The notes: generated by a model from the letters alone, not told the origin. Shown: positions 1 through 37,838, numbered from the stretch's first letter. The stretch: DNA of 43,722 nt from a virus (IMGVR_UViG_3300047316_000096:1-43722), one strand, 5' to 3'. Program-made: numbers and translations.

Positions 1-127
1 AACACCATCGTAAAGGACGCTCCGCCCGAAACCTCCGGGGCCGCAAAGCGCCAAATGCTCCAGCAGGGCGCAAGCGTTGGTGGCCCACTTGCGGGAGCCC
101 CACCGCCCGGTGTAGCATCCGCGCCAC
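1..127. repeat. Terminal direct repeat, copy 1. It is an exact duplicate of 43596..43722 and marks a circular or terminally redundant genome.
   Basis: Read directly: bases 1-127 (aacaccatcgtaaagg...gtagcatccgcgccac) are identical to 43596-43722. Confidence 0.95.
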
Positions 128-180
128 TCCCCAGCCCAGGCGCAATGGCGCCACCCGGCGGCGGCATGGGCGAAATGTAG
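1..180 (+). CDS. 3' part of the Met/Pro/Gly-rich protein gene that starts at 43338 (the gene crosses the window junction)
   Basis: Frame 1 is open from base 1 to TAG at 178-180. It is in frame with ATG 43338 once the 127-nt overlap is collapsed. The combined product is about 145 aa. Confidence 0.6.
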   Translation, partial: NTIVKDAPPETSGAAKRQMLQQGASVGGPLAGAPPPGVASAPLPSPGAMAPPGGGMGEM

Positions 181-189
181 GACTGAATC

Positions 190-390
190 ATGGCTCAGGA
201 TTTCCTTCGACCTACCAAGGTGCCGTCGTCCGATCTCTCCAAGCGCAAGATGGAGGACGGACAGTTCCGCAATCCGCCGACCTATTCCGATTTTGGCGGC
301 TTCACCTCGGCCGACAAATCGAAATTCCAGAACAACAAAATGACCCTCGAACGCGGCGGCCCGACCGCCGTCAAGGGCCGTCCGATCTAA
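190..390 (+). CDS. Hypothetical small protein (66 aa)
   Basis: ATG-initiated ORF lying between the junction-spanning gene and the scaffold-like gene. No motif recognised. Confidence 0.5.
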   Translation: MAQDFLRPTKVPSSDLSKRKMEDGQFRNPPTYSDFGGFTSADKSKFQNNKMTLERGGPTAVKGRPI

Positions 391-412
391 GCAGTTGCGC
401 CCCGGCGCATCA

Positions 413-450
413 GGGGCCGGAAATCTACTCCTCCCGTGAGTACCGGCCCC
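413..450 (+). promoter_or_regulatory. GC-rich inverted repeat (ggggccgg - 22 nt - ccggcccc) in the intergenic gap upstream of the scaffold-like gene
   Basis: Perfect 8-bp arms read directly. No T-run follows, so it is not a classical terminator. It could be an RNA processing/stability hairpin or a protein-binding site. Confidence 0.35.
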
Positions 451-472
451 CACAAACAAGGAAAGCGAGCAC

Positions 473-1039
473 ATGGCACCGAAACGGCAGTTGAGCCCCC
501 AGGAGATGGCGGACCTGTCGAACATGTTCATGGAGCTTTCGCACGATCCCAAGACCCGCCCCTATGTGGCGAAGCTGGTCGAGCACAAATTCCCCGACCG
601 CGCGGCCAGTTTCACGGACGTAAAACACGAGGCCCAGCTTGCGGCGCTCCGCAACGAGATCGCCCAGAAGGATCAGTTGAACCAGGCGCGCGAAATGCAG
701 CGCGCGCTCGATCGCCAGCGCGATAAGCTGGTAGAGGATGGTCGCTACACGACCGAGCAGACCCAGGAAATCAAGCAGATCATCGACCGCCACGGCGGAA
801 CGCTCGACTACAACCAGGCCGCCGTGCTCTACGCTCACGAAAAGCCGCCCGTAAACCAGATGGACGGCCCGCCCGAAGATCAGCGGATGGGCTCGACCTG
901 GGAATTTCCCACCGTAAACGGCCGCGACGGAAAGCCGATTCCGTTCGCAGAGTTCGCCAAAAACCCCAACACTGCTGCGCACAACGCCGCCTACCAGGTG
1001 ATCACCGAGTTCAAGAAGCGCTCGGGGGTCAGGGTATAG
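473..1039 (+). CDS. Putative scaffolding protein (188 aa)
   Basis: Lies immediately upstream of the major capsid gene. It is charged and has a Q/E/R/K-rich helical-looking middle (EAQLAALRNEIAQKDQLNQAREMQRALDRQRDKLVEDG). The assignment rests on position and composition only. Confidence 0.5.
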   Translation: MAPKRQLSPQEMADLSNMFMELSHDPKTRPYVAKLVEHKFPDRAASFTDVKHEAQLAALRNEIAQKDQLNQAREMQRALDRQRDKLVEDGRYTTEQTQEIKQIIDRHGGTLDYNQAAVLYAHEKPPVNQMDGPPEDQRMGSTWEFPTVNGRDGKPIPFAEFAKNPNTAAHNAAYQVITEFKKRSGVRV

Positions 1040-1062
1040 CGGGAGCGCTGGATCAATAAGTT

Positions 1063-2076
1063 ATGCCGCAGTTCGGTAGTGGAATAATCCCGGCACAAGG
1101 TGCGATTGCAAACGAACTCAGCGCCGTCGTCCGCCGCGGCTTCATGCCTCGCGTGTACGTGCAGCTTTGGAAGAGCGCGCCCATGATGGCGGCGCTGCTC
1201 TCCCACGCGCAAGTCGCCTCCGGCGGCCTGTCGCCGATCACCGCGCCGCTCCAGGGCGCCCCGATGGTGAGCGGCCAGTGGGTCGATTACTCGGGCTCGT
1301 TCAATCAACCCGGCATCCAGCCCGGCATCCAGAACGCCGAGTTCAATCTGAAAGCCTACTGCACCCCGATCCCGTTCCTCGGCTTCGAGGGCTTGGTGCA
1401 ACTCGACTATTCGATTGTCCCGTTGATAGACGCGAGGATGAATGACGCGACGAATGTTACGATCGACACCTTCGCCACTACGCTTTACAACAACGTCGCC
1501 AACACCCAGCAGCTTATTGGTCTACCAGCCGCGATTGACGACGGCACCTTCTCGGCCAACTACGGCGGCATCCCGCGAACGACCAACCAGTTCTGGAAAT
1601 CCACCTACGTCCACAACAGCGGCGCCACCGTCCCGACCCGAAACCTGATGCTCCTGTACATCGCCCAGGTCAGCAAGACCACGGGCGAGATGCCGTCGAT
1701 CGGCATCATGGGGTTCGGGACATGGACGCTGCTCGCGCAGGACTTCACCCCGCAGGAGCGCTACAACATCAATCCGGCAGAGCGGCTGAACAGCGCGGAT
1801 TTCGTCGGCCATTCGAGCTTCCAAGCCCTCGACATCGCCGGCATCCCGTTCTACGCCGATCCGTATTGCCCCGAAGGTACGCTCTACATCATCAACACCA
1901 ACTACCTGAGCCTGTTCCTCCACGAGCGGGCCGCTTTCGCTTTCACGGGCTTCGAATCGACGCTGCCCAACAACCAGTTCGGATACATCAGCGCCATCCT
2001 GTCGCTGCTGGAGCTCGTCAACGTGAAATGCAAGGCCCACGCAAAGATCGATGGCTTGCAATTCCTGAACATCTGA
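1063..2076 (+). CDS. Major capsid protein (337 aa)
   Basis: The size and the portal - scaffold - capsid order are typical of podovirus head modules. The ORF has no low complexity and strong GC3. Confidence 0.7.
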   Translation: MPQFGSGIIPAQGAIANELSAVVRRGFMPRVYVQLWKSAPMMAALLSHAQVASGGLSPITAPLQGAPMVSGQWVDYSGSFNQPGIQPGIQNAEFNLKAYCTPIPFLGFEGLVQLDYSIVPLIDARMNDATNVTIDTFATTLYNNVANTQQLIGLPAAIDDGTFSANYGGIPRTTNQFWKSTYVHNSGATVPTRNLMLLYIAQVSKTTGEMPSIGIMGFGTWTLLAQDFTPQERYNINPAERLNSADFVGHSSFQALDIAGIPFYADPYCPEGTLYIINTNYLSLFLHERAAFAFTGFESTLPNNQFGYISAILSLLELVNVKCKAHAKIDGLQFLNI

Positions 2077-2083
2077 GGCGCGC

Positions 2084-2992
2084 ATGTCCCGCATCGGCGG
2101 CGTTTTTCCCTTCCCGCTCCAGAGCCCGATCAACGGGGATGGCACCTATTCGTTGCCCGGCGGCGGCACCTACGTTTTGCCGGCCGGGCTTTGGCTGGTG
2201 ACCTGCGGCACCACCACCCAAGTACAGTGGTTCAACCCGAACACCCTCACATGGTCGCTGCTGTTGACCACGGGAGACGTATCGTCCGATCCCGCCAACT
2301 TCCGGGTAATCAACACCACCGGGACCGTGACCGGAACCACCATCACGGGCGCCGGCAGCGGCGCGACCGCGAACGGCATCGGCTCCACCGCGACCGGCGT
2401 CACAATCACATTCACGGCCTCGCCGGTTGGCGCGATCGCCACCGCTAGCGCCTTCCCGATCGTCGGCGGCTCAGTCGCCGCCCCCACCATCACCCAGGCC
2501 GGATCGGGCTTCCTCGCTCCGCCGCTCATCATGATCGACGCACCGCCGCCCGGCGGCATCCAGGCCACCGCGGTCGCAACGATCTCCGCCGCAGGCGCCG
2601 TGACCGCCATCACCATGGTTCGGGCCGGGGCCGGGTATGCGTCGTCTCCGAACTTCTACGTCATCCCGCAACCGCCGTATTACCAGGGCTCTCCGATCGC
2701 CGGCGTTGCCGCGGCGGCATGGCCCGCCCCCGGCCTCGTCTACCCGACCAACCTGCCGGGCGGGATGCTCGCCATGTTCCAGCCCAACGTGTCTCTCACA
2801 GGGTGCCAGTTGACCTCGGTGGCGCTGACCGGCAGCGGAACGCTGACCGGCATAGGACTCATCGATTACGGCTTCGGCTACACCGCAACCCCGACGATCA
2901 CCGTCGCGGGCGCCGGCGCCGCGACCGCAACCTCGGCCGCGGTGGTCGCCGCGGCCACCGATACCTTCACAATTCAAGGACGAGTCGCATGA
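2084..2992 (+). CDS. Capsid-adjacent virion protein with repeated GxGY beta-module (decoration or head-fibre-like; function unassigned)
   Basis: 302-aa ORF directly after the capsid gene. It is T/G/A-rich and carries AGSGF...AGAGYASSP and GFGYTATPTITV motifs, which are shared with the proteins at 7614 and 8510. Confidence 0.6.
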   Translation: MSRIGGVFPFPLQSPINGDGTYSLPGGGTYVLPAGLWLVTCGTTTQVQWFNPNTLTWSLLLTTGDVSSDPANFRVINTTGTVTGTTITGAGSGATANGIGSTATGVTITFTASPVGAIATASAFPIVGGSVAAPTITQAGSGFLAPPLIMIDAPPPGGIQATAVATISAAGAVTAITMVRAGAGYASSPNFYVIPQPPYYQGSPIAGVAAAAWPAPGLVYPTNLPGGMLAMFQPNVSLTGCQLTSVALTGSGTLTGIGLIDYGFGYTATPTITVAGAGAATATSAAVVAAATDTFTIQGRVA

Positions 2993-3171
2993 CCTCCTAC
3001 GTCAGCGGAACCACACAGACTTCCAATCTCTCGAATGTCGAGTTGCGGGTGATCTCGCAACTCATCCAGCAGGACCAGGGCGGCAAGAACGCCGCCGAAA
3101 GTCTCGCGCTCATTCGCAACGACATAGCCCAATCGCTCGGCTATCCGACACCCGTACCGGGTGACACCTGA
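2989..3171 (+). CDS. Hypothetical small protein (60 aa)
   Basis: ATG 2989 overlaps the upstream TGA (ATGA). The 2719 start in the ORF track would overlap the preceding gene and is rejected. Confidence 0.5.
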   Translation: MTSYVSGTTQTSNLSNVELRVISQLIQQDQGGKNAAESLALIRNDIAQSLGYPTPVPGDT

Positions 3172-3211
3172 CCGGCGTGGACTCTCTGCCGGCCCATAAA
3201 GGAGTTTGAAC

Positions 3212-3868
3212 ATGGCTACCCTCTACGTCACCCCGGGTCTATCGCCCACGTCGAATCCGGACGTTACTCCGACCGCAATGATAGGCGGCAAGCAGGGCGA
3301 AGGCGTCGTCGCGGAACTGCACGGCAAGTACTACACGCAGGCATATCGCAACCAGGCATTCATCGGCGCCACCGCGGCCGGTGGCGTGGTCCCGCCGAAC
3401 TACTCCACCACGGCGCAGACCTTCGGTCTGTGGAATCCGGCCGGATCGGGCAAGAACGCCATCCTGATCGCGCTGGACCTCGGCCTCGTTACCGTTGGCA
3501 CCCCGGCGGTGTCGTCGCTGGCGTTGTCCTACACCCCGAATGCCGGCTCGGCGCTGGCAACCGGCGGCATTTCGGCCTTCACGTCGGCGGCCCCGCTGGC
3601 GGCGATCGTCGGCAACACCGCGCCATCGGCCATGAGGTTCACGCCCTCCGCCGCCACCACACTGGCCTCTACGTTCCTGATGCCGCTGCCGTTCAGCTAC
3701 TTCTCGACCACCACCACCACGGTCGCGACGTTCGCCTCGAACCTGCTGCATTACGATTTCGACGGCTCGGTCGGAATTGCCCCCAACACAGCGCTGTGGG
3801 TCGGCGCCAATATCTTGACCGGCTCGACCTGGAACATTAGCTTGCGCTGGTATGAGGCACCCGTCTGA
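3212..3868 (+). CDS. Hypothetical virion-module protein (218 aa), beta-rich with a poly-Thr stretch (STTTTTVAT)
   Basis: AAGGAG at 3199-3204 sits 7 nt before ATG 3212, which is preferred over the TTG at 3206. No catalytic motif recognised. Confidence 0.6.
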   Translation: MATLYVTPGLSPTSNPDVTPTAMIGGKQGEGVVAELHGKYYTQAYRNQAFIGATAAGGVVPPNYSTTAQTFGLWNPAGSGKNAILIALDLGLVTVGTPAVSSLALSYTPNAGSALATGGISAFTSAAPLAAIVGNTAPSAMRFTPSAATTLASTFLMPLPFSYFSTTTTTVATFASNLLHYDFDGSVGIAPNTALWVGANILTGSTWNISLRWYEAPV

Positions 3869-4517
3869 TAAACCTCGTGTCGCCCTGTGCATCCCATCGG
3901 GCGACACCTGGAAATCCCTGACCGGCTTTCACGTCATGTCGCTCGGCGCCTACTCGGCGCCGCATGTGACCTTGATGCCGATCAACGTCCGCACCCAGGA
4001 CACCGCCGAATCACGCAACCAGATGACGGCCGCCGCGCTCGATGAGGACGCGGACTATCTGCTGTGGATCGACGCCGACATGATTATGCCCCCGGACGCC
4101 CTGCTGCGCCTGCTGAAGCGCGACGTTGACGTGGTGGGGGCGGACTATCGCCGGCGCGCGCCGCCATTTCCGAGAATTGGCAAGCCCATCGATGCGTCCG
4201 CGCCCGACCGCGGCATGGTCGAAGTCTCGATGCTCGGCCTCGGCCTCATGCTGATCCGCGCCGATGTGCTGAAAAAGATGATGCGCCCGTGGTTTCTGCG
4301 CATGTGGGTGCTCGAACACGCCGCCCCCGACAATCCGTCCGGCTTCTCCACCGAAGATGGCTATTTCTGCGGCTACGCGCGTCACCTCGGCTACACAGTA
4401 TGGGCCGATCTTGACCTCAGTCAGGATGTCGGACACATCGCCGAGCAACTGATTCCGTGGGACATGGACGGCGGAGCCAAAACTGAGGGGGTCGGATGCC
4501 TGAAAACAAGCGCGTAG
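3852..4517 (+). CDS. GT-A fold (family-2-like) glycosyltransferase, paralog 1
   Basis: DxD-type motif LLWIDADMIMPPDALLRLL and downstream GFSTEDGYFCGYAR. It is clearly paralogous to the next ORF. Confidence 0.7.
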   Translation: MRHPSDKPRVALCIPSGDTWKSLTGFHVMSLGAYSAPHVTLMPINVRTQDTAESRNQMTAAALDEDADYLLWIDADMIMPPDALLRLLKRDVDVVGADYRRRAPPFPRIGKPIDASAPDRGMVEVSMLGLGLMLIRADVLKKMMRPWFLRMWVLEHAAPDNPSGFSTEDGYFCGYARHLGYTVWADLDLSQDVGHIAEQLIPWDMDGGAKTEGVGCLKTSA

Positions 4518-5155
4518 CGGTCTGCATTCCGTCCGGCGGGACGTGGCTCGCCCCGATGGCGTTTCAGGCGCTATGCCTTGCCATCCATTCCGCCCCCCAT
4601 GTGCATCTGATGCCGATGATTCTATCCGGCGACGATACCGCCCAGGCGCGCAACAGGCTGGTACGGATGGCCCAGCGTCACGGCGCGGCGTGGATTCTGT
4701 GGATGGACGCCGACATGGTGTTTCCTCCCGACGCCCTGCTGCGGCTGATGAAGCACGACCGCGCGATCGTAGGCGTCGATTACCGCAAGCGCGCAGCGCC
4801 CTACGACAAGGTGTCGGTCTCCTTGAGCGAAGAGGAAACCTCCTTGGACCCGCCGCCGGGGCTGGTGGAAAAGGCCATCATCGGGCTCGGCCTTGTGCTG
4901 GTGAAAATGTCGGTGTTCGAGTCGCTGCCGGCCCCATGGTTCGGGCGTAGCTGGATGCGGGAATATGCCTCGATGAACAACCCGGACGGATTTTCCACGG
5001 AGGACGCCTATTTCTGCAATGTCGCCCGGCAAAAGGGCTATCGGGTTTGGTGCGACCGCGAGCTTAGCCGCGAAATCCAGCATGTCGGCGAAATGGCGGT
5101 GCCGTTCGAGCTGCCGGCCCGACCGGAGATTGTGCAAACCGTCGCATCGTCGTAG
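4496..5155 (+). CDS. GT-A fold (family-2-like) glycosyltransferase, paralog 2
   Basis: ILWMDADMVFPPDALLRLM and GFSTEDAYFCNVAR motifs, collinear with paralog 1. A GAGGGGG Shine-Dalgarno sequence precedes ATG 4496. Confidence 0.7.
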   Translation: MPENKRVAVCIPSGGTWLAPMAFQALCLAIHSAPHVHLMPMILSGDDTAQARNRLVRMAQRHGAAWILWMDADMVFPPDALLRLMKHDRAIVGVDYRKRAAPYDKVSVSLSEEETSLDPPPGLVEKAIIGLGLVLVKMSVFESLPAPWFGRSWMREYASMNNPDGFSTEDAYFCNVARQKGYRVWCDRELSREIQHVGEMAVPFELPARPEIVQTVASS

Positions 5156-5181
5156 AGTGCGGGCCGCAACGGAGACACCCC

Positions 5182-5526
5182 ATGGTTAGCGCCCCCACTG
5201 CCAATTCCACTCAATCATCGCCGTATTCCTTTGGAACGACGGTCGGCCTCACCTCGGGTCCGGTATTTCCCGGCAACCCGACCGCGGGCGGTATGATCGT
5301 CGTCAACAACGGGACGGTCCCTGTTTCAATCGTGACGGCAACCATGAACCTCGGCGCCCTCGGGGTTTACACGGGAGCAACTGCCGGTGTGGCAGTCATC
5401 AATGGGCCGGGCTGCGTTACTCTTGCCCCGGGCGACAAGTTCATCTTCGACAATCTGCTCGCCACCGCCGCTTGGAACGGCATCGCTCAGGGCGGCACCG
5501 GAGCCCTGACGTTCTTGTGTTTCTGA
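5182..5526 (+). CDS. Hypothetical small beta-rich protein (114 aa) between the glycosyltransferases and the radical SAM gene
   Basis: ORF with a GGAGA sequence upstream. The GMIVVNNGTVPVSIV pattern is loosely reminiscent of the fibre-associated domain family at 19939-21979. Confidence 0.5.
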   Translation: MVSAPTANSTQSSPYSFGTTVGLTSGPVFPGNPTAGGMIVVNNGTVPVSIVTATMNLGALGVYTGATAGVAVINGPGCVTLAPGDKFIFDNLLATAAWNGIAQGGTGALTFLCF

Positions 5527-6980
5527 CCCCCGTCTGTTTGATCATCCCGCCGTCGCCGTTCCTGCTTGACGAGCGGGTTTTCATGCCGCTCGGAGTTCTG
5601 AAGGTAGCCGCCGCGCTCCGTGCCGGCGGTGTGCCGGTCGAAGTGCTGGACCTGTCGGGAGTGTCCAATTATGTGGAAGTCGTATCAACCCATGCGGCAA
5701 CCAGCGATTCGGAAGTCTTCGCAGTCACCGCTACGACGCCCCAATTTCCGGCAGCGGTGGCCATTGCCCGGACCCTACGTCAGGGAAAATCAAGCCGCCG
5801 TAGACTTGTGCTTGGCGGACCGCACGGAACACTGGTATCCGCAGCGGCCAAACGCGAGACGAAAAGGGGCCGCCGGTCTCGCGGAATGGCGGCGCTGGAT
5901 GCGATTTATCACTCGTTTGACTGCGTGGTCGCTGGCGACGGAGAGACAGCGGTATTTCCGGCTTTACAGCATGATGCACCGCCGCTGATCGACGCCGACG
6001 ACCGCCATTCGCCCTATTGGCTCCAGCCCGACCTCGCGCCGTGGCCCGCCCGCGACCTGATTGACGTTCCGTCGTACCGCTATACCATAGACGGGGTGCC
6101 GGCGCTCTCTCTGATTGCCCAGCTTGGTTGCCCGTTCGGCTGCGGCTTCTGCGCGGGGCGGAACAGCCCGTCGCTTCGCCATATCCGGATGCGGTCCGCC
6201 GACAACGTGGTTTTGGAAATGCGCCACATGGCGGATACCTACGGCGTCCGGGGCTTCATGTTCTACGACGACGAACTCAACGTGAATCGCGGCCTTGTGG
6301 ACCTTATGGAAAAGATCGCGGCCGTGGGCGCAGATTGGCGGCTCCGCGGCTTCGTCAAGGCCGAGCTCTTCACCGACGAGCAGGCCGCCGCAATGCGACG
6401 CGCCGGATTCCGCTGGATACTTGTCGGCTTCGAGTCCGGATCGCCCCGCATCCTCGACAACATCCGCAAAATGGCCGATCAGGACGACAATAGCCGCTGC
6501 ATGGCTATTGCGCGGCGACACGGATTGAAGGTAAAGGCCCTGATGTCGCTCGGCCACCCGGGAGAATCTGAGGAGACCATCGATGGGACCAGGAGATGGC
6601 TTCTAGACGAGAGGCCCGACGACTTCGACGTGACGATCATTACGCCCTACCCGGGGAGCCCCTACTATGACGACGCCACCGAAACTGGACCCGGGACGTT
6701 CACCTACCAGGCTAGATCAGGCGACCGACTTCATCAACGTGAAATCGACTACGCAGCCGTCGCTGACTATTACAAGGGTACGCCTGGTGACTACGTGTCC
6801 CATGTGTGGACGGACCAGCTTACAGCAGGGGAAATGGTGCGAGCACGAGACCTGCTGGAACAGGATGTTCGGGATGCCCTGAGCCTGCCTTTCAATTTGG
6901 CCGCCGCTGCGGTAGCTTACGAGCACTCGATGGGCCAGACGGCCCTGCCGCCCCGGCTGCTAAGGAGTTCCAATGGTTGA
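5517..6980 (+). CDS. B12-binding-domain radical SAM enzyme (class B-like)
   Basis: N-terminal PLGVLKVAAALRAGGVPVEVLDLSG resembles a cobalamin-binding domain. CPFGCGFC is a CxxxCxxC radical SAM cluster motif, followed by a GFESGSPRILD core. The start is uncertain: GTG 5517 is chosen because it overlaps the upstream stop, and the ORF-track start at 5472 is unlikely. Confidence 0.8.
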   Translation: MFLTPVCLIIPPSPFLLDERVFMPLGVLKVAAALRAGGVPVEVLDLSGVSNYVEVVSTHAATSDSEVFAVTATTPQFPAAVAIARTLRQGKSSRRRLVLGGPHGTLVSAAAKRETKRGRRSRGMAALDAIYHSFDCVVAGDGETAVFPALQHDAPPLIDADDRHSPYWLQPDLAPWPARDLIDVPSYRYTIDGVPALSLIAQLGCPFGCGFCAGRNSPSLRHIRMRSADNVVLEMRHMADTYGVRGFMFYDDELNVNRGLVDLMEKIAAVGADWRLRGFVKAELFTDEQAAAMRRAGFRWILVGFESGSPRILDNIRKMADQDDNSRCMAIARRHGLKVKALMSLGHPGESEETIDGTRRWLLDERPDDFDVTIITPYPGSPYYDDATETGPGTFTYQARSGDRLHQREIDYAAVADYYKGTPGDYVSHVWTDQLTAGEMVRARDLLEQDVRDALSLPFNLAAAAVAYEHSMGQTALPPRLLRSSNG

Positions 6981-7479
6981 TCTTCCCGCGATGTCGCCAA
7001 TCAAGCCGGGAGAAACCCCGACCTTCCAGTTGGTGAAGATCATCAACACCAACGATTTCGTCATCAACGATATGTTCGATGGCGTGCCCTACAAGTTCGA
7101 GCCCAACAAGCCTCTCTCCATTCCACTTGAGGCGGCGGCGCACTTCTTCGCGTGGCCGTCCGATGATCCGACACTCGTCAAGGTGTGGATCGCAAAACGC
7201 CTCGGGTGGAACACCAAGGAAGACATTGAGCGCCAGCCGGACGGCCGGATGCGATGGGAGCATTGGGTCGAGAAGATCTTGATCGTTCCGGTGCATTTCG
7301 ATCTCGTGCAGCGCGATCCGGACGCCCCGATCCCGGCCGACGCCGGAGAGGGCGAGGCGATGACCGAAAGCGATCTCCCGCCAGTGCCGCAGACCCGCGA
7401 CGACCTTAGCGGGACCAAGGTTGGTGTACGGAAGGACACGCGCTTCAAGAAAAAGGCGCCGCGGAGGGTGGACGTATGA
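6973..7479 (+). CDS. Hypothetical protein (168 aa)
   Basis: ATG 6973 overlaps the radical SAM stop. The C-terminal tail is basic (KKKAPRRVDV). Confidence 0.55.
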   Translation: MVDLPAMSPIKPGETPTFQLVKIINTNDFVINDMFDGVPYKFEPNKPLSIPLEAAAHFFAWPSDDPTLVKVWIAKRLGWNTKEDIERQPDGRMRWEHWVEKILIVPVHFDLVQRDPDAPIPADAGEGEAMTESDLPPVPQTRDDLSGTKVGVRKDTRFKKKAPRRVDV

Positions 7480-7610
7480 AAATCATGTGGGTGAAGTCTG
7501 GCGACTATGGAGACGGCCGGCTTCGGGGCCTGTACGTTCAGATCGCCCGCCGCTTCGTGTTTTTCATCAGAGAGCCGCGCCTCGGCATCAAGGCCGGAAC
7601 AGTGCAGTGA
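7476..7610 (+). CDS. Hypothetical micro-protein (44 aa)
   Basis: Not in the ORF track because it is under 60 aa. It has an ATGA overlap with the upstream stop and exactly fills the gap before GTG 7614. Confidence 0.35.
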   Translation: MKIMWVKSGDYGDGRLRGLYVQIARRFVFFIREPRLGIKAGTVQ

Positions 7611-7613
7611 ATC

Positions 7614-8510
7614 GTGACCGCCTCCCTGCAAACCTACGTCACGCAGGTTCAATCTCTCGTTCATGACACGACATTTTCGGCGTGGACCCAATCTCAGTTG
7701 ACAGACTACATCAACGCGGCCCGCGAGGACACCGCGTTGGACATGCACTGCTACCGGCACAACACTGTCGGGGTGCAACTCATCAAAGGTCAGGAAATCT
7801 ACTCGATCGACGGCGCGGTGTGCGGCGCCAACGTGACCGCCGGAGGCACCGGCTACCCATCGAACACCACCGTCACATTCACCGCGGCGCCGGCCGGCGG
7901 CGTGACCGCGACCGCAATCCCCGTGATCACGGCGGGGATCGTGACGCAGATTCAGATGACCCAATGGGGTCAGGGCTACACCACCGTCCCAACCGTCACG
8001 ATAACCGGAGCCGGCGGCACAGGCGCTTCGGCATCGGCCGTGACGTTCATTAACACCTTTCAGATCGTCGGCATTTCGAACACTTGGAACAATCAGCGAT
8101 ATACCCTGTCGTTTCGCGCCTTCACGCTGTTTCAGGCGTATTTCAGGTGTCAGCCGGCGTCCTATCTGTCGCGGCCCGGCGTGTGGACAATTCACCCGCA
8201 AGACCTCAACGTCTATCTGCAATCGCCGCCCGACCAGCTTTACTTTTCCGAGTGGGACGTGCTCTCGACGCCGCCGCCGCTCGTCGCCCTCACCGACCTC
8301 GACACCCAGATCAGGCCGCCGTGGAACAAGGCCGTGCAGTTCCGCGCCGCCGCGCTGGCGCTCTTCAAGAAACAGAATTTTGCGCAAGCGGATTATTACG
8401 ACAACAAATATCAGCAGCGAGTCCTCCGCTACAATCTGGGGGCGGCGGGCATCCGCCTGCCAAATCCGTATAATGCTTCGTTCCAGCGCAAGATCGCCCG
8501 GGGTGTGTGA
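7614..8510 (+). CDS. Head-tail adaptor / tail tubular protein A-like protein carrying an inserted GxGY module
   Basis: Its position resembles the capsid - gp11 - gp12 order of T7-like phages. The N-terminal helix (QLTDYINAAREDT) and C-terminal IRPPWNKAVQFRAAALALF resemble adaptor proteins. Residues about 71-145 form the shared module. Confidence 0.45.
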   Translation: MTASLQTYVTQVQSLVHDTTFSAWTQSQLTDYINAAREDTALDMHCYRHNTVGVQLIKGQEIYSIDGAVCGANVTAGGTGYPSNTTVTFTAAPAGGVTATAIPVITAGIVTQIQMTQWGQGYTTVPTVTITGAGGTGASASAVTFINTFQIVGISNTWNNQRYTLSFRAFTLFQAYFRCQPASYLSRPGVWTIHPQDLNVYLQSPPDQLYFSEWDVLSTPPPLVALTDLDTQIRPPWNKAVQFRAAALALFKKQNFAQADYYDNKYQQRVLRYNLGAAGIRLPNPYNASFQRKIARGV

Positions 8511-10297
8511 TGGCGCGCGGCCCGTCCAAGCAACAGATGTCATCCGATCAGGGCTCCGGGGTTGGCTCACAGCAGCGCTCCACGTCCAAGTTCATCGTCT
8601 TCTCCGGCATTACCAAGATCAACACCAAGGCGGCCCGCGACGCTCTTCCGGAGAACGAGGCCGCATGGCTGGAAAATCTTCAGCCAATCTCGGAAAACAA
8701 CCTCTTCACGATTCCGGGGCCTCAACCGCCGTTGACAACGCTCGTCGGAGAACAGAGCGCAACGTTTTTCGGTGCCAATATTGGGGCGATCGACTACATC
8801 ATCGCGTTCACGTCGAATGGCGCGGGAATTGCGATCGATACAAATAGTGGAGCGCAGACGCCGTTCGCGCCGGACAATACGTTCGCCAACCCCGACATGA
8901 CCGTGTATGCGTCGGAACGCATCCTGATCATGGACCCGGTGTCAGGTTATTCGACCTGGGACGGCACCGTGTTTGTACGTAGCGGAGGGCTGTCACCGAA
9001 TGTCCAAGTCACTACCGGAGGATCAGGCTACACCGTCGCGCCAGCCATCACGTTCTCCGGCGGCTCGGGCTCGGGCGCCGTTGCTCACGCGGTAATCGCA
9101 GACGGTGCAGTGATTTCGATCGTCCTCGATCAGTCAGGATCGGGCTATCTTCCCGGCGAGGTTATAACGGTCCACATCGCAGGACCGGGAACGGGCGCCG
9201 CCGCGACCGTGCTGGTGTGGCCTGTCGTGACGGGATCGACCATCGCGGTATTCGAGGGCCGCGTGTGGTGGGCCGGAGGCCGTATTCTAAACTGGACCGG
9301 AACGGCGGGATACGATGACACCGACCCCGCCAATGCGGCGGGCTCGACCACCATCTCTGATGCTGACCTGTCCCACAACATCACGGCGCTGCGGACGCTC
9401 AACAACTATCTCTTCATCTTCGGCGATACGTCGGTGCGGCAGATCGGCAATATCACCGTCCAGTCGTCAATCACGCTGTTCACCCCGCTGATCCTTGCGT
9501 CCGATATCGGAACGTCGTTCCGTCGCACGATCCAATCCTATAACCGCCTCGTCCTTTTCGCCAACAAGCAGGGCGTCTACGCGATCTTCGGCGCGTCGGT
9601 CGAGAAGATCAGCGACGACCTGGACGGCATCTTTCAACTGATCGACTTCAGCCAACCGCTGGAGGCCGCGCTCAACGATCTCCGCAACATACACTGCTAT
9701 ATGATTCTGCTCCGCTATCAAGACCCGGTGCGCGGCGGCTCTAGATCTATCGCGTGCATGTTTCAAGAGAAGAAATGGTTTATCGTCAGCCAAGGCGACA
9801 ACCTCAAGACTATCTGTACAGTCCCGCTTGCGAGTTCGTCCCAGATCGAAACCTTTGGTTCCTCTGGCCCTGACGTGACACAGCTTTTGCAAAACCCCAA
9901 TTTGGCCGTTTCGTGGGAGATTCAAACCGCGCTGAGCGCCCACGGCAATCCCATACAGGCTAAGCAGATTTTGAACGTCGGCATCTTTGGCAACGGTGTA
10001 GGCGGCGCCAACATTTCCATGGAAGTCGATACTGAGAACGGAGCGATTGCCTATCCGCTGGCGTTTTCTCCCAAAGTGCAGTGGATCAACAATCTCGGTC
10101 AGAAGGTCAACTGGGTCAACAATCTCGGTCAGCTCGTCACTTGGCTCGGTCAGGGGCATCAATTTCCCTACACGGCCGCCGACGGATACGGGAAAGTGCT
10201 GGGGCTGACCGCTACGGGAACGAGCGTGCAGACCCGCATCCACTACGGCGCGATCGAATACCAAGACGCCGATATGTGGGGGCAACGAGATGTGTAG
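8510..10297 (+). CDS. Tail nozzle / tail tubular protein B-like protein carrying an inserted GxGY module
   Basis: About 595 aa, beta-rich, and immediately after the adaptor-like gene. ATG 8510 gives a TGATG overlap (GTG 8507 is an alternative start). The shared module lies at about 8993-9218. Confidence 0.45.
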   Translation: MARGPSKQQMSSDQGSGVGSQQRSTSKFIVFSGITKINTKAARDALPENEAAWLENLQPISENNLFTIPGPQPPLTTLVGEQSATFFGANIGAIDYIIAFTSNGAGIAIDTNSGAQTPFAPDNTFANPDMTVYASERILIMDPVSGYSTWDGTVFVRSGGLSPNVQVTTGGSGYTVAPAITFSGGSGSGAVAHAVIADGAVISIVLDQSGSGYLPGEVITVHIAGPGTGAAATVLVWPVVTGSTIAVFEGRVWWAGGRILNWTGTAGYDDTDPANAAGSTTISDADLSHNITALRTLNNYLFIFGDTSVRQIGNITVQSSITLFTPLILASDIGTSFRRTIQSYNRLVLFANKQGVYAIFGASVEKISDDLDGIFQLIDFSQPLEAALNDLRNIHCYMILLRYQDPVRGGSRSIACMFQEKKWFIVSQGDNLKTICTVPLASSSQIETFGSSGPDVTQLLQNPNLAVSWEIQTALSAHGNPIQAKQILNVGIFGNGVGGANISMEVDTENGAIAYPLAFSPKVQWINNLGQKVNWVNNLGQLVTWLGQGHQFPYTAADGYGKVLGLTATGTSVQTRIHYGAIEYQDADMWGQRDV

Positions 10298-10436
10298 AGA
10301 TGTGATTGCTGTTTCAAATGGGCATCATTGGATCAAGGCGTTAAAATTGATTTGTTGCCAAGACTGCGGCATCGTCCGCCGGGCGGATGATAAGAACTCT
10401 CCGTGCAAGGGCGTCTGTAAAGTGGGGCCAAAGTGA
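10290..10436 (+). CDS. Hypothetical Cys-rich micro-protein (48 aa; CCQDCG...PCKGVC)
   Basis: Not in the ORF track. The ATG overlaps the end of the nozzle-like gene, and its TGA overlaps GTG 10433 (GTGA). Six Cys residues suggest a zinc-ribbon-like fold. Confidence 0.35.
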   Translation: MCRDVIAVSNGHHWIKALKLICCQDCGIVRRADDKNSPCKGVCKVGPK

Positions 10437-10780
10437 GCGAGTTCGATCCTCCGATTTTCCTGTTCGGCGACCGTGCAGCGCAGGGCCGGTGGGAGATCGG
10501 TCACTATCGTCAGCACTTGCGCTATCTTTCGTTCCTCGCTGGCCTAACACCGCCCGTCATCATCGCAGACCAACCGATCATCACCATGGGGACGACGGAC
10601 CTCGAACGGCGGATTTTCCTCAACAGCCATCAAGTCCTGCACCAACTCATCCGCCCCTTCGCTAACGTGGCGGGGATTGACCTTGCGCTGGTCGATCTCA
10701 AGAATGAAGAGCAGTTTTACGTGTGGTTGGATGTGCATGCCAACGAGCACGATCTAATCGACCAAGCCTTCGGGCTATAG
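10433..10780 (+). CDS. Hypothetical protein (115 aa)
   Basis: GTG-initiated ORF. No motif recognised. Confidence 0.5.
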   Translation: MSEFDPPIFLFGDRAAQGRWEIGHYRQHLRYLSFLAGLTPPVIIADQPIITMGTTDLERRIFLNSHQVLHQLIRPFANVAGIDLALVDLKNEEQFYVWLDVHANEHDLIDQAFGL

Positions 10781-10789
10781 GAGGCCGAC

Positions 10790-11293
10790 ATGAGAGTGAG
10801 CGTGAACGGTTCGGATTGGGTAGAGAACGACGACACCAAGGTCACTTTCCGCGTCGAGTCCTTAGAGGGCGACGACTTCGAGAAGTTCAAGCAGTTGCAG
10901 AGCGCGCATTACGGTGAGGTGGCAGGCTTCAAAGGCGTGTTGGACCGGCTTAATCCCGACTGGACCAAATACATGCAGATGGAGAAGAGTGGCCGCCTTC
11001 ACTTGGTGAAGGCCCGCGCCTGGAACGGATCGCTCGTGGGCTACTCGGCCCACATGGTCTACCATCACCTTCACTACAAACATGTGCTCGTGGCTGAGGA
11101 CGACGTGTTCTACCTCACGCCGACGATGCGAGGTCGCGGCATCGGTCAAAGGATGCGAGAATTTGCGGTCGAAACGCTCAAGGAGCGCGGCGTGATTCTC
11201 GTACTCGCTCGCGTGAAGCCTCACATCCCGCAGCCGCACCTCGAAAAACTCGGGTATAGTGTGATGGAAACGGTATACGCAAAGGTGCTGTGA
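10790..11293 (+). CDS. GNAT-family N-acetyltransferase
   Basis: Acetyl-CoA binding motif A, R-G-R-G-I-G (TMRGRGIGQRMREFAVE), with size and layout typical of GNAT enzymes. Confidence 0.7.
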   Translation: MRVSVNGSDWVENDDTKVTFRVESLEGDDFEKFKQLQSAHYGEVAGFKGVLDRLNPDWTKYMQMEKSGRLHLVKARAWNGSLVGYSAHMVYHHLHYKHVLVAEDDVFYLTPTMRGRGIGQRMREFAVETLKERGVILVLARVKPHIPQPHLEKLGYSVMETVYAKVL

Positions 11294-11523
11294 TGCGGTT
11301 CATGGGATGTGATGTAGATCGGCTTGAGTACAGCCCTCTGCAAAAAACCGGCTTTTTACATATGGCCAAAGGACACGTTTGCGACATGACCGCCTGCATC
11401 GATTTTTTCAAATCCATCGATCCCGACGTGCGAAGCATAGGAACATTTTCTGGGAAAAAGCGCGTTACAGCCTACTTGTTGGTCGATGGAGAATGGTGTG
11501 CTCTTGAGGATGGGAGAAAGTAA
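11293..11523 (+). CDS. Hypothetical protein (about 76 aa)
   Basis: ATG 11293 (or GTG 11290) overlaps the GNAT stop. Confidence 0.5.
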   Translation: MRFMGCDVDRLEYSPLQKTGFLHMAKGHVCDMTACIDFFKSIDPDVRSIGTFSGKKRVTAYLLVDGEWCALEDGRK

Positions 11524-14250: not shown

Positions 14251-14402
14251 ATATGATCGATTGGTTTTGGACCGGAGTTCACAATGCCTTGGATGGGCGA
14301 GGACGATTGACGCCTAAAGGTGTCGGTGTCTGCAAGTACGCATATTTGGTTGGGTGGGTGACTGGACTGATGGGGGTCAATCTCCGACGAGGGCACGCAT
14401 AA
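14247..14402 (+). CDS. Hypothetical small membrane protein (51 aa)
   Basis: Not in the ORF track. ATGA overlap with the upstream stop. Hydrophobic segment YAYLVGWVTGLMGV. Flanked by the 12-nt direct repeat gagggcacgcat. Confidence 0.4.
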   Translation: MNMIDWFWTGVHNALDGRGRLTPKGVGVCKYAYLVGWVTGLMGVNLRRGHA

Positions 14403-14403
14403 A

Positions 14404-15963: not shown

Positions 15964-15964
15964 G

Positions 15965-16138
15965 ATGGAAAAATTCACGACATTCTATTGCAAGCAGTGC
16001 GGATGGTTTCAAGAAGAGCAGGGGCAATGGGCCATGGCGCCAAAGTGTCCTGAATGTAGCGCGTCGCTCTTTTACGTAAAGTTTGATGATGAAGAGCGAC
16101 AGCGCGCGCACGCTATCATTTGCGGAAAGGCGGCGTGA
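15965..16138 (+). CDS. Zinc-ribbon micro-protein (57 aa; CKQC...CPEC)
   Basis: Not in the ORF track. Two CxxC pairs. Flanked by the 16-nt direct repeat cggaaaggcggcgtga. Its stop overlaps ATG 16138. Confidence 0.45.
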   Translation: MEKFTTFYCKQCGWFQEEQGQWAMAPKCPECSASLFYVKFDDEERQRAHAIICGKAA

Positions 16139-28438: not shown

Positions 28439-28681
28439 TCACGAGTCCTGCGCATCCTTGAACGTCTCGGCGAACGGCGCGGTGATGAATTTCAGGATGC
28501 GATCATATATTTCATATACGTCGGTACAACCTGGCGCGCCCGCCTCGCAGACTTTAATCGCCTGCTCCACACACCACTGACGCACGCGCATCTCGTCCAT
28601 CTGCTTCGCCAGCGCGTCGCGCCAGTTCTGCATCAGCGATTGAACCTGCGCGTCATCCATTCGATTTCTCCAACGTAGCAT
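28439..28681 (-). CDS. Hypothetical protein (73-80 aa)
   Basis: Last ORF of the leftward operon. The start is either ATG 28681 or ATG 28660 (MDDAQ...), and both overlap the upstream gene end. Confidence 0.5.
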   Translation of the reverse strand: MLRWRNRMDDAQVQSLMQNWRDALAKQMDEMRVRQWCVEQAIKVCEAGAPGCTDVYEIYDRILKFITAPFAETFKDAQDS

Positions 28682-30856: not shown

Positions 30857-31197
30857 TCGGATTTCCCTACTATCTCATAATTCATCATGTAGCTTCCCGC
30901 CCCCCCGTCGCCGTAGCCGTAGCCGAAGCCGGAGCCGTCGCCGAAGCCGTAGCCGTCACCGTAGCCGGAGCCGTCGCCGTAGCCGGAGCCGTCACCGTAG
31001 CCGAAGCCGGAGCCGTCGCCGGAGCTGTAGCCGTCACCGTAGCCGGAGCCGTAGCCGGAGCCGTCGCCGGAGCCGGAGCCGTCGCCGTAGCCGTCGCCGT
31101 CACCGTAGCCGTAGCCGTAGCCGTCACCGGAGCCGTCGCCTACTTTGACCATCTGGCCGACTCCAAGCTGTTCACCGCCAGGATAACCTGTCGTCAT
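30853..31197 (-). CDS. (Gly-X)n dipeptide-repeat protein, paralog 1 (114 aa; X = D, S, Y, F)
   Basis: The minus-strand frame reads GGC GAC GGC TCC GGC TAC with every codon ending in C. There are ATGA overlaps with both neighbours. The leader GEQLGVGQMVKVGDGSGDGYG is conserved with paralog 2. An alternative start is the internal ATG 31152, preceded by GGAG. Confidence 0.55.
   Translation of the reverse strand: MTTGYPGGEQLGVGQMVKVGDGSGDGYGYGYGDGDGYGDGSGSGDGSGYGSGYGDGYSSGDGSGFGYGDGSGYGDGSGYGDGYGFGDGSGFGYGYGDGGAGSYMMNYEIVGKSE
30898..31140. repeat. Degenerate tandem hexanucleotide array (gcc-gta/gtc/gga/gaa-type units) underlying repeat protein 1
   Basis: Read directly: every second triplet on the plus strand is gcc, with a period of 6 nt. 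Confidence 0.9.
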
Positions 31198-37690: not shown

Positions 37691-37838
37691 AGCTCACGAC
37701 GTGAAGTGCCATGAGCTGGCCCGGCACTGCCTGGGCAGTGAGGCAAGCGACCGGCTCGTGGCAAATCTCGCGCAGGCTATTTCGGACGAGATTGTGAGCT
37801 GGATGAAGCACGAGAAGGACGAACTTGAGCGTGGATGA
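37641..37838 (+). CDS. Hypothetical protein (65 aa) immediately upstream of the large terminase (position compatible with a small terminase, unproven)
   Basis: ATG-initiated ORF overlapping the previous gene by 50 nt and the terminase start by 14 nt. Confidence 0.35.
   Translation: MKRPIAPAGRRITRRAEAHDVKCHELARHCLGSEASDRLVANLAQAISDEIVSWMKHEKDELERG

Follow-up and report, generated by a model that had tools for sequence, protein, structure and literature searches.

An uncultivated phage with a complete 43.7-kb genome (the window, i.e. the whole stretch of 43,722 nucleotides that was analysed) carries, at positions 3852–6980 just 3′ of its major capsid gene, four co-directional genes encoding two predicted glycosyltransferases, a small protein and a radical SAM enzyme. 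The locus raises the question of what such a set of enzymes would modify from within a head gene module, and by which chemistry.

Position and gene order of the island

The genes of the locus and its two boundaries are collected in Table 1. The upstream gene at 1063–2076 encodes the major capsid protein (phrog_9953, 1e-27), and the placement of the cassette inside a head/virion gene array, as given in the preliminary description, holds. The same description called the products of 7614–8510 and 8507–10297 adaptor-like and nozzle-like; these labels found no support: the two products have only an Ig-like repeat in common with virion structural proteins, and a PDB sequence search gave no match for 8507–10297 and a best E of 0.64 for 7614–8510. 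The radical SAM open reading frame spans 5472–6980 and its translation likely starts at GTG 5517, giving 487 aa; the alternative start TTG 5538 gives 480 aa and corresponds to the JGI call P0001. Overlaps were found for p220/GT1 (17 nt), GT1/GT2 (22 nt), p114/radical SAM (10 nt, given the start at GTG 5517) and radical SAM/p168 (8 nt). The earlier claim of translational coupling is thus plausible at most junctions, with overlaps of 8–22 nt, whereas GT2 and p114 are separated by a gap of 26 nt.

Table 1. Genes of the accessory island and its boundaries, in window coordinates
Feature	Coordinates	Strand	Basis or remark
p302, Ig-like repeat, upstream island boundary	2084..2992	+	backbone; 92% conserved in L174
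p60, small protein opening the accessory island	2989..3171	+	comparison of relatives
p220, accessory beta-sandwich with Ser/Thr-rich loop STTTTTV, candidate glycan acceptor	3212..3868	+	
GT1, predicted soluble GT-A glycosyltransferase, DAD and TED motifs, 221 aa	3852..4517	+	Pfam, PHROG, pairwise
GT2, predicted paralogue of GT1, 219 aa	4496..5155	+	family and pairwise evidence
p114, lineage-specific small accessory protein, 114 aa	5182..5526	+	
Radical SAM enzyme, N-terminal B12-binding-type Rossmann domain, unnamed glycan-cluster family	5517..6980	+	
p168, downstream island boundary	6973..7479	+	backbone; 89% conserved in L174

Variability of the island among relatives

The boundary protein p302 was found in all relatives whose sequence reaches that far, and p168 lies directly 3′ of it in relatives without the island. 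The p302–p168 interval is empty in 41 of the 51 relatives spanning it and holds p60, p220 and p114 alone in eight; one further relative has an SAM methyltransferase with one glycosyltransferase and another a glycosyltransferase with a radical SAM enzyme, and both of these enzyme-bearing relatives (2/51) also carry p220 and p114. The enzymes are nested within the p220 accessory unit, and no enzyme-bearing member of this lineage is without p220. Likewise, p60 was detected in relatives only alongside p220 and/or p114.

Enzymes are found in eight distinct relatives (L007, L090, L001, L010, L011, L174, L175 and L176; L008, a repeat of the window's own phage, was left out). In these, p220 stands directly 5′ of the GT-A gene, with a methyltransferase gene in between in L174 and L175 and two copies of p114 in between in L007, and the order p220, GT-A, radical SAM recurs in five other lineages with variable copy number. 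The closest view of the exchange is given by L174, where the capsid protein is 96% identical to that of the window and the flanking genes 89–92%, as against only 60% for p220, and where an FkbM methyltransferase and one glycosyltransferase replace the two glycosyltransferases and the radical SAM enzyme. In this sibling the backbone is kept and the island swapped; the cassette amounts to a hypervariable, accessory island that occupies one fixed hotspot between p302 and p168.

The accessory proteins

Judged from gene position, p60, p220 and p114 are presumably virion proteins. The p220 family has 137 members, and all contexts examined were phage or prophage-like. The AlphaFold2 model of p220 (pLDDT 77) is a beta-sandwich that gave no significant match in a PDB fold search and matched only uncharacterised phage proteins in BFVD. 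For p114, which is rich in G, T, A and V, no family or PDB match was obtained; it has only 17 homologue clusters, is absent from L090 and L010 and occurs without any enzyme in eight relatives.

Two candidate acceptors had been named earlier. The T/S/G-rich p302 gains no support, being a conserved backbone protein that does not co-vary with the cassette. Conversely, the case for p220 is strengthened by the restriction of the lineage's enzymes to p220-bearing islands and by their co-divergence with it, but its poly-Thr run is not conserved across the p220 proteins linked to radical SAM genes. Distant homologues of p220 sit in head modules without any glycosyltransferase, and p220 consequently does not require glycosylation.

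The glycosyltransferases and the DNA and membrane systems they might serve

The earlier reading of GT1 and GT2 as a paralogous GT-A pair was borne out by profile searches, by their 44% identity (E 9e-70) and by the shared motifs WIDADM/WMDADM and GFSTEDGYFC/GFSTEDAYFC. With Pfam Anp1, GT1 and GT2 scored 28.8 and 30.9 bits (cut-off 28.8) with the DAD motifs within the match, and with Glycos_transf_2 18.4 and 23.8 bits, the cut-off of 23.3 being reached by GT2. PHROG glycosyltransferase families were matched by both, and a homologue of the pair in L176 passes Glyco_tranf_2_3 over residues 44–205. The GT62 (Anp1/Mnn9) profile is aligned over positions ~117–190 of 263, at or barely above cut-off, and the nearest solved structure, the GT-A mannosyltransferase Mnn9 (E 8e-4), aligns over the same region. 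With the DxD motif inside a GT2/GT62-like GT-A profile match, the prediction of a GT-A fold for both holds, although the scores are modest and concentrated around the DxD motif. Homologues of GT2 (30–35% identity) are located immediately 3′ of the capsid gene in the unrelated podovirus-like genomes MW202496 and MW202711.

No transmembrane (TM) helices were predicted in GT1, GT2, p114 or the radical SAM enzyme, and soluble GT-A enzymes are able to act on lipid-linked intermediates too. The complete genome yielded no flippase, membrane glycosyltransferase or nucleotide-sugar gene, and no large multi-TM protein; a 126-aa hydrophobic ORF at 30847–31227 gave no match in a Pfam search. A Gtr-type system (GtrA, GtrB and membrane GtrC) was rejected on the lack of TM helices in the cassette and of a large multi-TM protein.

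Phage glycosyltransferases often target DNA (10.1101/2023.12.21.572611; PMC13326640), and in one viral locus group a gene for dCMP deaminase and one for a homologue of the window GT-A lie beside the radical SAM gene. Still, hypermodification of the phage DNA, in which a modified base would be glycosylated and then radically tailored, appears very improbable. In the complete genome, every ORF of at least 140 aa was searched with Pfam and PHROG, and none was recognised as a hydroxymethylase, a dioxygenase of the TET/JBP type, a DNA methyltransferase or any other enzyme that modifies bases; the cassette is part of the head module, where it co-varies with a protein of structural type, and radical SAM enzymes are unmentioned in the two works cited. 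A DNA glycosyl-hypermodification system calls for a phage-encoded enzyme that forms the base to be glycosylated (a hydroxymethylase, or a methyltransferase with TET/5mYOX), and none was detected among these ORFs.

The radical SAM enzyme and its nearest relatives

The enzyme matched PF04055 at 1.8e-23 (83.9 bits, cut-off 29.5) and its CPFGCGFC motif, of the CX3CX2C type that holds the [4Fe-4S] cluster, is invariant across 34 homologues; this motif and the PF04055 core place it in the radical SAM superfamily. PF02310 was matched at 7.6e-9 (35.9 bits, cut-off 32.1) over residues 38–124, the HpnR profile aligns over residues 23–399, and the N-terminal domain of the AlphaFold2 model is Rossmann-like. 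The B12-binding-type Rossmann domain expected of a class B enzyme is present at the N-terminus, and that part of the earlier label "class B methylase" stands; the methylase part gains no such support, as no named family cut-off was reached and the best match is AprD4. Class B enzymes of solved structure are not known to share a sequence motif for cobalamin, and the sequence is consequently no guide to whether the cofactor is bound.

AprD4 from apramycin biosynthesis, in the structure with bound paromamine, was the top Foldseek match (E 8e-19, TM 0.68/0.72) and also ranked first by sequence in the search of solved structures (E 7e-21); TsrM, TokK, OxsB and CysS, which are cobalamin enzymes, were less similar in fold. 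AprD4 acts together with the reductase AprD3, of which no counterpart was found in this genome. This radical SAM 1,2-diol dehydratase (PDB 6FD2) acts on a sugar and has the same N-terminal Rossmann-like domain and radical SAM barrel, the fold match running over the whole length at only ~20% identity. It binds no cobalamin (PMC12931638), whereas the window enzyme passes the Pfam B12-binding threshold; since this closest solved relative is without cobalamin, methylation is not established. Structural placement, which the preliminary description had suggested, thus resulted in a fold match to AprD4 but in no named subfamily, as no curated cut-off was reached in the profile search of named radical SAM families. 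The AprD4 family NF033070 was rejected on a score of 81.8 bits, where 500 is required, and HpnJ (TIGR03471), the best named family, on 112.3 bits, where 577.6 is required, the genome having no hopanoid genes.

HpnJ also provided the best annotated tblastn matches (25–26% identity). In hopanoid biosynthesis, the GT2-family glycosyltransferase HpnI and the B12-type radical SAM enzyme HpnJ, which contracts a sugar ring, act sequentially on one glycoside (PMC9204698). The window likewise has GT-A and B12-type radical SAM genes side by side, but the HpnI/HpnJ acceptor is a hopanoid lipid. The cobalamin-dependent sugar C-methyltransferases GenK, GenD1 and MoeK5, which tailor the sugars of glycosylated products, similarly carry a radical SAM core behind a B12-binding-type domain at the N-terminus (PMC9204698), and no specific sequence relationship of the window enzyme to these three was detected.

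Distribution and gene neighbours of the radical SAM family

The enzyme belongs to a large, unnamed and highly conserved family (50–79% identity). Members were found on no fewer than 146 contigs of uncultivated viruses and in no fewer than 403 bacterial species genomes, almost always adjoining glycan genes. A cassette of two glycosyltransferases and a radical SAM enzyme in a podovirus structural operon had earlier seemed unfamiliar; the pairing of a glycosyltransferase with this radical SAM family proved common in uncultivated phages, although no close match to the enzyme was found among the GenBank phage records searched. Within 6 kb of 166 loci homologous to the radical SAM gene, a mixed glycosyltransferase cluster was found at 117 (represented by GT4 and built by single linkage, so that GT2-type enzymes are probably chained in as well), NDP-sugar epimerase/dehydratases at 54, Methyltransf_24 at 28, FkbM methyltransferases at 22 and DegT aminotransferases at 21, with GT47, UDP-glucose dehydrogenase, GT_PLOD and GT11 at fewer. 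Directly 5′ of the homologues are mainly glycosyltransferases and methyltransferases. The link between the radical SAM enzyme and carbohydrate, already drawn from the window, is strong in light of these neighbours.

Elsewhere, both in cells and in further phages, the family is found in large polysaccharide clusters, which more likely make cell-envelope glycans. The homologue lies inside a polysaccharide cluster in Parcubacteria, adjoins GT4 on a Xanthobacteraceae chromosome, and in Nitrospira is placed between a polyprenyl-phosphate-sugar-synthase-like GT2-family gene and a ~10-TM protein. Because of these clusters a host-surface target has to be weighed here as well: during infection the cassette would remodel a glycan of the host surface, be it O-antigen, capsule or exopolysaccharide, with p220 and p114 as unrelated neighbours. 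This role is the one usually proposed for phage glycosyltransferases, and also for pelagimyophage cassettes in which glycosyltransferase and radical SAM genes occur together (PMC7029224). For the present phage it seems unlikely, considering that its complete genome is without a flippase, a membrane glycosyltransferase or a multi-TM protein of adequate size, that the enzymes are embedded in a late head-gene array and that in this lineage they appear only together with p220, which co-diverges. Such remodelling might, for example, bar superinfection or keep progeny from binding again to lysing cells; against it, none of the ORFs tested was recognised as a lysogeny gene.

Host-recognition clusters of marine pelagimyophages and cyanomyophages contain radical SAM genes beside glycosyltransferase and sugar-aminotransferase genes in variable islands of the structural region (PMC7029224, PMC12801897). 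Many IMG/VR loci of the window family resemble these clusters, which are large, multi-gene, myoviral and functionally unassigned, the likeness being one of gene content.

The radical SAM enzyme could instead modify a protein in the manner of a RiPP maturase, by C-methylation, epimerisation or cross-linking in p114 and/or p220, with the sugars added independently. Substrate-like proteins followed by enzymes, with p220/p114 duplicated, are reminiscent of precursor-plus-maturase clusters, and the fold and profile matches include B12-type radical SAM enzymes that modify proteins, namely MgmA/9ccb, the glutamine methylase TIGR04014 and the RiPP methylase TIGR03975. However, homologues of ~60% identity reside in polysaccharide clusters of cells, and in other phages they occur where p220 and p114 homologues are lacking, and the cassettes of L090 and L010 are without p114. 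The high conservation of the enzyme further argues for a common small substrate rather than a lineage-specific protein, and protein modification is regarded as improbable.

A proposed glycan on an accessory virion protein

From the gene identities, the family contexts, the variability of the island and the nesting of the enzymes we infer an acceptor, a substrate and a chemistry: p220 (and/or p114) would be glycosylated and the sugar radically tailored by the radical SAM enzyme, a reading to which we give an even chance. The accessory core p60–p220–p114, able to stand alone in relatives, would here have been supplemented with the glycosyltransferase pair and the radical SAM enzyme. Upon late expression, GT1 and GT2 would draw on host nucleotide sugars and glycosylate p220 and/or p114 with one or two sugars, which on p220 would be placed on Ser/Thr and probably within the exposed Ser/Thr-rich loop. 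The radical SAM enzyme would generate a 5′-deoxyadenosyl radical and abstract hydrogen from a sugar carbon, either of the nucleotide sugar before transfer or of the sugar already attached. Cobalamin binding by the N-terminal domain would point to a C-methylated sugar as the product; alternatively, AprD4- or HpnJ-like chemistry would give a dehydrated/deoxygenated or a rearranged sugar.

A functional analogy may be proposed with mycobacteriophages, whose glycosyltransferases reportedly decorate virion proteins (work of Freeman et al. in 2023); we know of no radical SAM enzyme in mycobacteriophage virion glycosylation. In that system, for which PMC12619734 cites Freeman et al. 2023, phage-encoded enzymes decorate capsid and tail-tube subunits at their C-termini in phages that infect Actinobacteria. 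In the window phage, by comparison, an accessory protein of its own is the presumed acceptor, and the cassette lies inside the head module.

More tentatively, and with appreciably less confidence than in the glycosylation of p220 and/or p114, we suggest that the radical SAM family (CPR bacteria, Nitrospira and many uncultivated phages) may perform a new radical modification of sugars or nucleotide sugars, here as part of a swappable "serotype island" that would provide an accessory head protein with a variable and unusual glycan coat. If this is true, virion glycosylation would extend beyond actinobacteriophages and would diversify like an O-antigen locus.

Genome context and gene array

The window ends in an exact 127-bp direct repeat and thus represents a complete phage genome of ~43.6 kb, circularly closing or terminally redundant. 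Its G+C content is ~60%, no tRNA genes were found in it, and positions 3000-8000 gave no DNA-level match among 50,697 GenBank phage records. One co-directional gene array spans ~190 to 19179, with the large terminase and portal genes directly upstream across the genome ends, and the cassette lies within this array.

Features of the phage genome, with coordinates in the window
Feature	Coordinates	Strand	Remarks
Direct repeat	1-127 and 43596-43722		exact
Major capsid protein	1063-2076		phrog_9953, 1e-27
p302	2084-2992	+	backbone, upstream boundary; Ig-like repeat
p60	2989-3171	+	accessory protein
p220	3212-3868	+	accessory protein, candidate glycan acceptor
GT1	3852-4517	+	glycosyltransferase
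GT2	4496-5155	+	glycosyltransferase
p114	5182-5526	+	accessory protein
rSAM	5517-6980	+	radical SAM enzyme
p168	6973-7479	+	backbone, downstream boundary
Ig-like repeat gene	7614-8510
Ig-like repeat gene	8507-10297
GNAT acetyltransferase	10790-11293	+	PF00583, 7.5e-6; phrog_1249
908-aa ORF	11524-14250	+	structural array
RecE-like exonuclease and neighbour	28653-30856	-	exonuclease: phrog_412, 3.5e-41; neighbour: phrog_1366
Large terminase	37825-39681
Portal	41282-43018

Adjacent reading frames overlap by 17 nt (p220/GT1), 22 nt (GT1/GT2) and 8 nt (rSAM/p168). The p114/rSAM overlap is 10 nt if rSAM starts at GTG 5517, a start that fits the homologues, lying about four residues ahead of their conserved CLIIPP; the JGI call (P0001) starts at TTG 5538. 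A promoter and terminator scan of 1-11600 was uninformative, since the counts were no higher than in shuffled sequence.

A Gly/Thr/Ala-rich Ig-like repeat of ~80 aa is common to p302 and the products of 7614-8510 and 8507-10297, and recurs in giant 'virion structural proteins' (phrog_701, phrog_19630, phrog_460). PDB sequence searches gave no significant match for any of the three (lowest E value 0.64, with 7614-8510), and with no hit at all for 8507-10297 the earlier labels 'adaptor-like' and 'nozzle-like' found no backing in this search. Further along the structural array, the GNAT acetyltransferase gene follows that of a 596-aa protein and belongs to the conserved backbone, being present also in the sibling phage L174, while the 908-aa ORF is extremely Gly/Ala/Pro-rich with GGFG-type repeats and has no family match. 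On the opposite strand, the RecE-like exonuclease and an adjoining phrog_1366 protein that weakly matches AAA_24 form a probable recombination module. A DNA polymerase or integrase was not recognised in the genome.

The preliminary description had raised DNA modification as an alternative role for the cassette. A search of the rest of the genome found no DNA-modification, Gtr-like or nucleotide-sugar genes. The recognised nucleic-acid genes are limited to the large terminase, the RecE-like exonuclease and its AAA_24-like neighbour (an unannotated PHROG family), and Pfam and PHROG searches of the ORFs of 140 aa or more detected no base-modifying enzyme that would form an acceptor. Hypermodification of phage DNA is highly improbable.

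The radical SAM enzyme

The radical SAM assignment is upheld: rSAM matches PF04055 at 84 bits and the B12-binding-type domain PF02310 at 35.9 bits (cut-off 32.1), and the CX3CX2C motif is invariant among its homologues, which share no further conserved cysteine clusters. Profile and structure searches assigned it to no named subfamily. Twenty NCBIfam models matched and none came near its cut-off; the top scores were those of HpnJ, the B12-type radical SAM enzyme paired with HpnI in the hopanoid pathway (112 against 578), BchE (86), a P-methyltransferase family (83) and AprD4, a radical SAM diol-dehydratase acting on a sugar (82 against 500). AlphaFold2 modelling with 34 homologues gave a confident structure (pLDDT 87.6), for which paromamine-bound AprD4 is the best fold neighbour in the PDB (E 8e-19, TM 0.68/0.72); AprD4 is also the top sequence match among solved structures. 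Behind it rank TsrM and MgmA (both cobalamin enzymes), then MiaB, then TokK, OxsB and CysS (also cobalamin enzymes). AprD4 has a Rossmann-related domain, yet binds no cobalamin (2026 review, PMC12931638); methylation of the class B type by rSAM would hinge on cobalamin use. The substrate of rSAM is probably a carbohydrate, a conclusion that we hold more firmly than the glycosylation reading as a whole.

The glycosyltransferase pair

GT1 and GT2 were described as paralogous GT-A glycosyltransferases, and the searches agree. The two are 44% identical (E 9e-70) and share the motifs W(I/M)DADM and GFSTED(G/A)YFC; both are at or barely over the cut-off for Pfam Anp1, GT2 also narrowly passes Glycos_transf_2, and their PHROG matches are glycosyltransferase families together with the unannotated phrog_1574. 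Mnn9, a GT-A mannosyltransferase, is the closest to them among solved structures, and no membrane segments were predicted in either protein. The TED within the second motif is similar to the catalytic TED of GT2-type synthases, a likeness used here as a lead only.

GT-A homologues of 30-35% identity also occur in MW202496 and MW202711, two complete, unrelated genomes of uncultivated phages, where scaffold and major capsid protein genes are followed by those of a 100-aa protein and the glycosyltransferase and then by tail genes, with no rSAM gene. This proximity to capsid genes independently supports a capsid-linked role for the GT-A enzymes.

A variable island between p302 and p168

Cassette layouts were obtained by tblastn of the window proteins against relatives.

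Gene order of the cassette in loci carrying rSAM
Locus	Layout
Window, L008	p60-p220-GT-GT-p114-rSAM
L007 (capsid 94%, rSAM 79%)	p60-p220-p220-p114-p114-GT-rSAM
L090	p220-GT-GT-rSAM
L001	p220-GT-(unrelated 97 aa)-rSAM
L010	p220-GT-rSAM
L011	p220-p220-GT-epimerase-rSAM

The 97-aa gene of L001 was considered as a p114 homologue and rejected, its product being charged and unrelated in sequence. The sibling L174 has a backbone very close to that of the window (capsid 96%, p302 92%, p168, p298 and p596 89% identity), and an island with p220 at 60%, a glycosyltransferase at 42-47% and p114 at 54%. It has no rSAM gene; an FkbM methyltransferase (PF05050, 3.5e-17) follows p220 instead, and L175 has the same layout. 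In these close relatives a SAM methyltransferase thus fills the slot held here by rSAM. In L176, a phage of another type whose adaptor is SU10-like, two p220 genes are accompanied by a GT2-like homologue and a Methyltransf_11 enzyme.

A capsid-protein scan of IMG/VR yielded 80 relatives at 68-99% identity, 51 of which span the interval from p302 to p168/p298. No island is present in 41 of the 51 (gap 0-1420 bp), a set that includes L236 with a different insert. Eight carry p60, p220 and p114 alone, although in two of these p220 is too divergent for tblastn, a 219-aa p220-like ORF being confirmed in L184 and assumed by analogy in L223. One further relative has an FkbM methyltransferase with a glycosyltransferase, and one a glycosyltransferase with rSAM. 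This interval is a hotspot of insertion; p60, p220 and p114 constitute a stand-alone accessory unit, and among the relatives surveyed the island enzymes occur only nested in that unit.

Unrelated material was also seen at this site: the 4.1-kb insert of L236 (10942-15104) encodes ORFs of 219, 688 and 217 aa, and the 1.4-kb insert of L193 (10234-11654) has among its contents a gene for a 135-aa protein whose N-terminus is hydrophobic.

The accessory proteins p220 and p114

The p220 family has 137 members, and all of the genomic contexts inspected belonged to phages or looked prophage-like. Many members apparently share a contig with an rSAM homologue, as judged from contigs of identical size (e.g. 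18628, 5278, 10585, 18327, 15353, 32894, 43109, 65577, 17610 and 4255 bp). Remoter members are encoded in the head modules of phages of other types, where no rSAM gene is present, one of them 3 kb from a polysaccharide pyruvyl transferase. A search of GenBank phages with the p220 protein gave no match. The predicted structure is a beta-sandwich (pLDDT 77); it found nothing significant in the PDB, where the weak matches are jelly-roll capsid proteins (E above 0.01), and only uncharacterised phage proteins in BFVD.

A variable, Ser/Thr/Ala-rich loop precedes the conserved HYDFDG of p220. The poly-Thr stretch in this protein had been put forward as a candidate acceptor. The nesting of the enzymes with p220 speaks for an acceptor role of the protein; the run itself is not tied to rSAM, as five or six Thr are restricted to a p220 subclade that does not follow rSAM, and the run is absent from L001, L007, L010 and L011, so that it was discarded as a mark of rSAM-linked p220. 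For p114, 17 homologue clusters were found, all within this lineage, and no family match; an origin as a truncated p220 was dismissed because the sequences show no similarity. By gene position and fold type, p220 and p114 would be virion proteins.

A widespread radical SAM family and its neighbours

A protein search with rSAM returned 4750 matches, the best 120 clusters all being 60-100% identical over the full length. Pattern scans gave at least 146 relatives in IMG/VR, on contigs of up to 393 kb, and at least 403 in bacterial genomes taken one per species, mainly Nitrospira (including the complete N. moscoviensis chromosome), Parcubacteria, Saccharibacteria and Elusimicrobia. GenBank phages hold no close homologue, the sole match being Streptomyces phage SF3 (31% over 40% of the protein), and among annotated relatives on plasmids and chromids HpnJ ranks first (25-26% identity), adjoining hpnI.

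Neighbourhoods were surveyed by calling ORFs in 166 rSAM loci, clustering all those within 6 kb and scanning representatives against Pfam. A mixed glycosyltransferase cluster (representative GT4) was present in 117 loci; it was formed by single linkage and probably chains GT2-type and GT4 enzymes via multidomain proteins. Next came NDP-sugar epimerase/dehydratase (54 loci), Methyltransf_24 (28, of which 26 viral), FkbM methyltransferase (22), DegT aminotransferase (21), GT47 (14), UDP-glucose dehydrogenase (13), GT_PLOD (11) and GT11 (8). Immediately upstream of rSAM (n=110), the commonest Pfam families were glycosyltransferases, SAM methyltransferases and epimerases. The cluster u555 was rejected as a partner, being an artefact, an antisense shadow ORF of the rSAM gene in high-GC loci.

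In Parcubacteria an rSAM homologue lies inside a polysaccharide cluster, and on a Xanthobacteraceae chromosome the gene is convergent with a GT4 gene. Four Nitrosospira-labelled and Nitrospira/Nitrospiraceae genomes (L099, L105, L112, L118, ~7100-11600) share a chromosomal row beside holB and metG, in which a 284-aa unknown protein, a 247-aa GT2-type enzyme resembling a polyprenyl-phosphate-sugar synthase, rSAM and a ~660-aa protein (~10 hydrophobic segments/TM, no Pfam) are encoded; the row resembles a pathway for periplasmic glycosylation in the Arn/Gtr style that includes radical tailoring. Since rSAM is 50-65% identical across phyla and viruses while the partner glycosyltransferase family varies, it would act on a sugar or nucleotide sugar in common use, not on an acceptor peculiar to one lineage.

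The substrates-then-enzymes layout of the island would also fit direct modification of a protein by rSAM. This is distinctly unlikely, as the family occurs also in polysaccharide clusters that have no p220. Remodelling of a host-surface glycan is suggested by the envelope-polysaccharide context of the cellular homologues; still, we consider it unlikely, because flippase, membrane glycosyltransferase and nucleotide-sugar genes are all missing from the complete phage genome and in this lineage the enzymes depend on p220.

Two phage homologues at 65% identity to rSAM, P0118 (656 aa) and P0059 (870 aa), contain an intein. Direct reading of P0118 puts its insertion just ahead of the first cysteine of CPFGCGFC (…IAQLG|CLAAGT…VVHN|CPFGCGFC); in P0059 an alignment break was seen near the same position. 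The P0118 contig (5278 bp) apparently also carries a p220 homologue, by identical contig size.

The closest phage cassette outside IMG/VR, that of L090 (JBGQCE010000012.1), is on a contig binned as a Bradyrhizobium sp. MAG, and the nearest cellular rSAM homologue (63% identity) is on a Xanthobacteraceae chromosome (L145). Together with the 60% G+C, this weakly hints at a Hyphomicrobiales alphaproteobacterium as host.

Discussion

The cassette noted in the preliminary description was confirmed, and its interpretation was borne out in part. The most likely function, to which we give about an even chance, is that enzymes on a swappable island glycosylate an accessory virion protein and tailor the sugar by radical chemistry. 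Phage-encoded glycosylation and radical SAM sugar tailoring are already known in kind; new here is a glycosylation/sugar-tailoring system built around an unnamed, very widespread radical SAM family. Radical SAM genes adjoin glycosyltransferases in variable regions of pelagimyophages and cyanomyophages, with no function given (PMC7029224, PMC12801897), and no literature was found on this rSAM family or on virion glycosylation in phages by a glycosyltransferase/radical SAM system.

If the virion reading is correct, tailed phages of Gram-negative-type hosts can hold modular, fast-swapping glycosylation islands within their head genes, and virion glycosylation, so far demonstrated in mycobacteriophages, would reach new phage groups. 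This reading would likewise point to selection acting at the surface of virions, through host defence, adsorption, environmental stability or antibody recognition. More widely, rSAM marks a very large, strongly conserved family found almost always with glycan genes, in Nitrospira, CPR bacteria, Elusimicrobia and at least 146 viral contigs, and the minimal phage cassette of an acceptor candidate, a glycosyltransferase and rSAM, with no other sugar genes, would offer a compact system for finding its chemistry.
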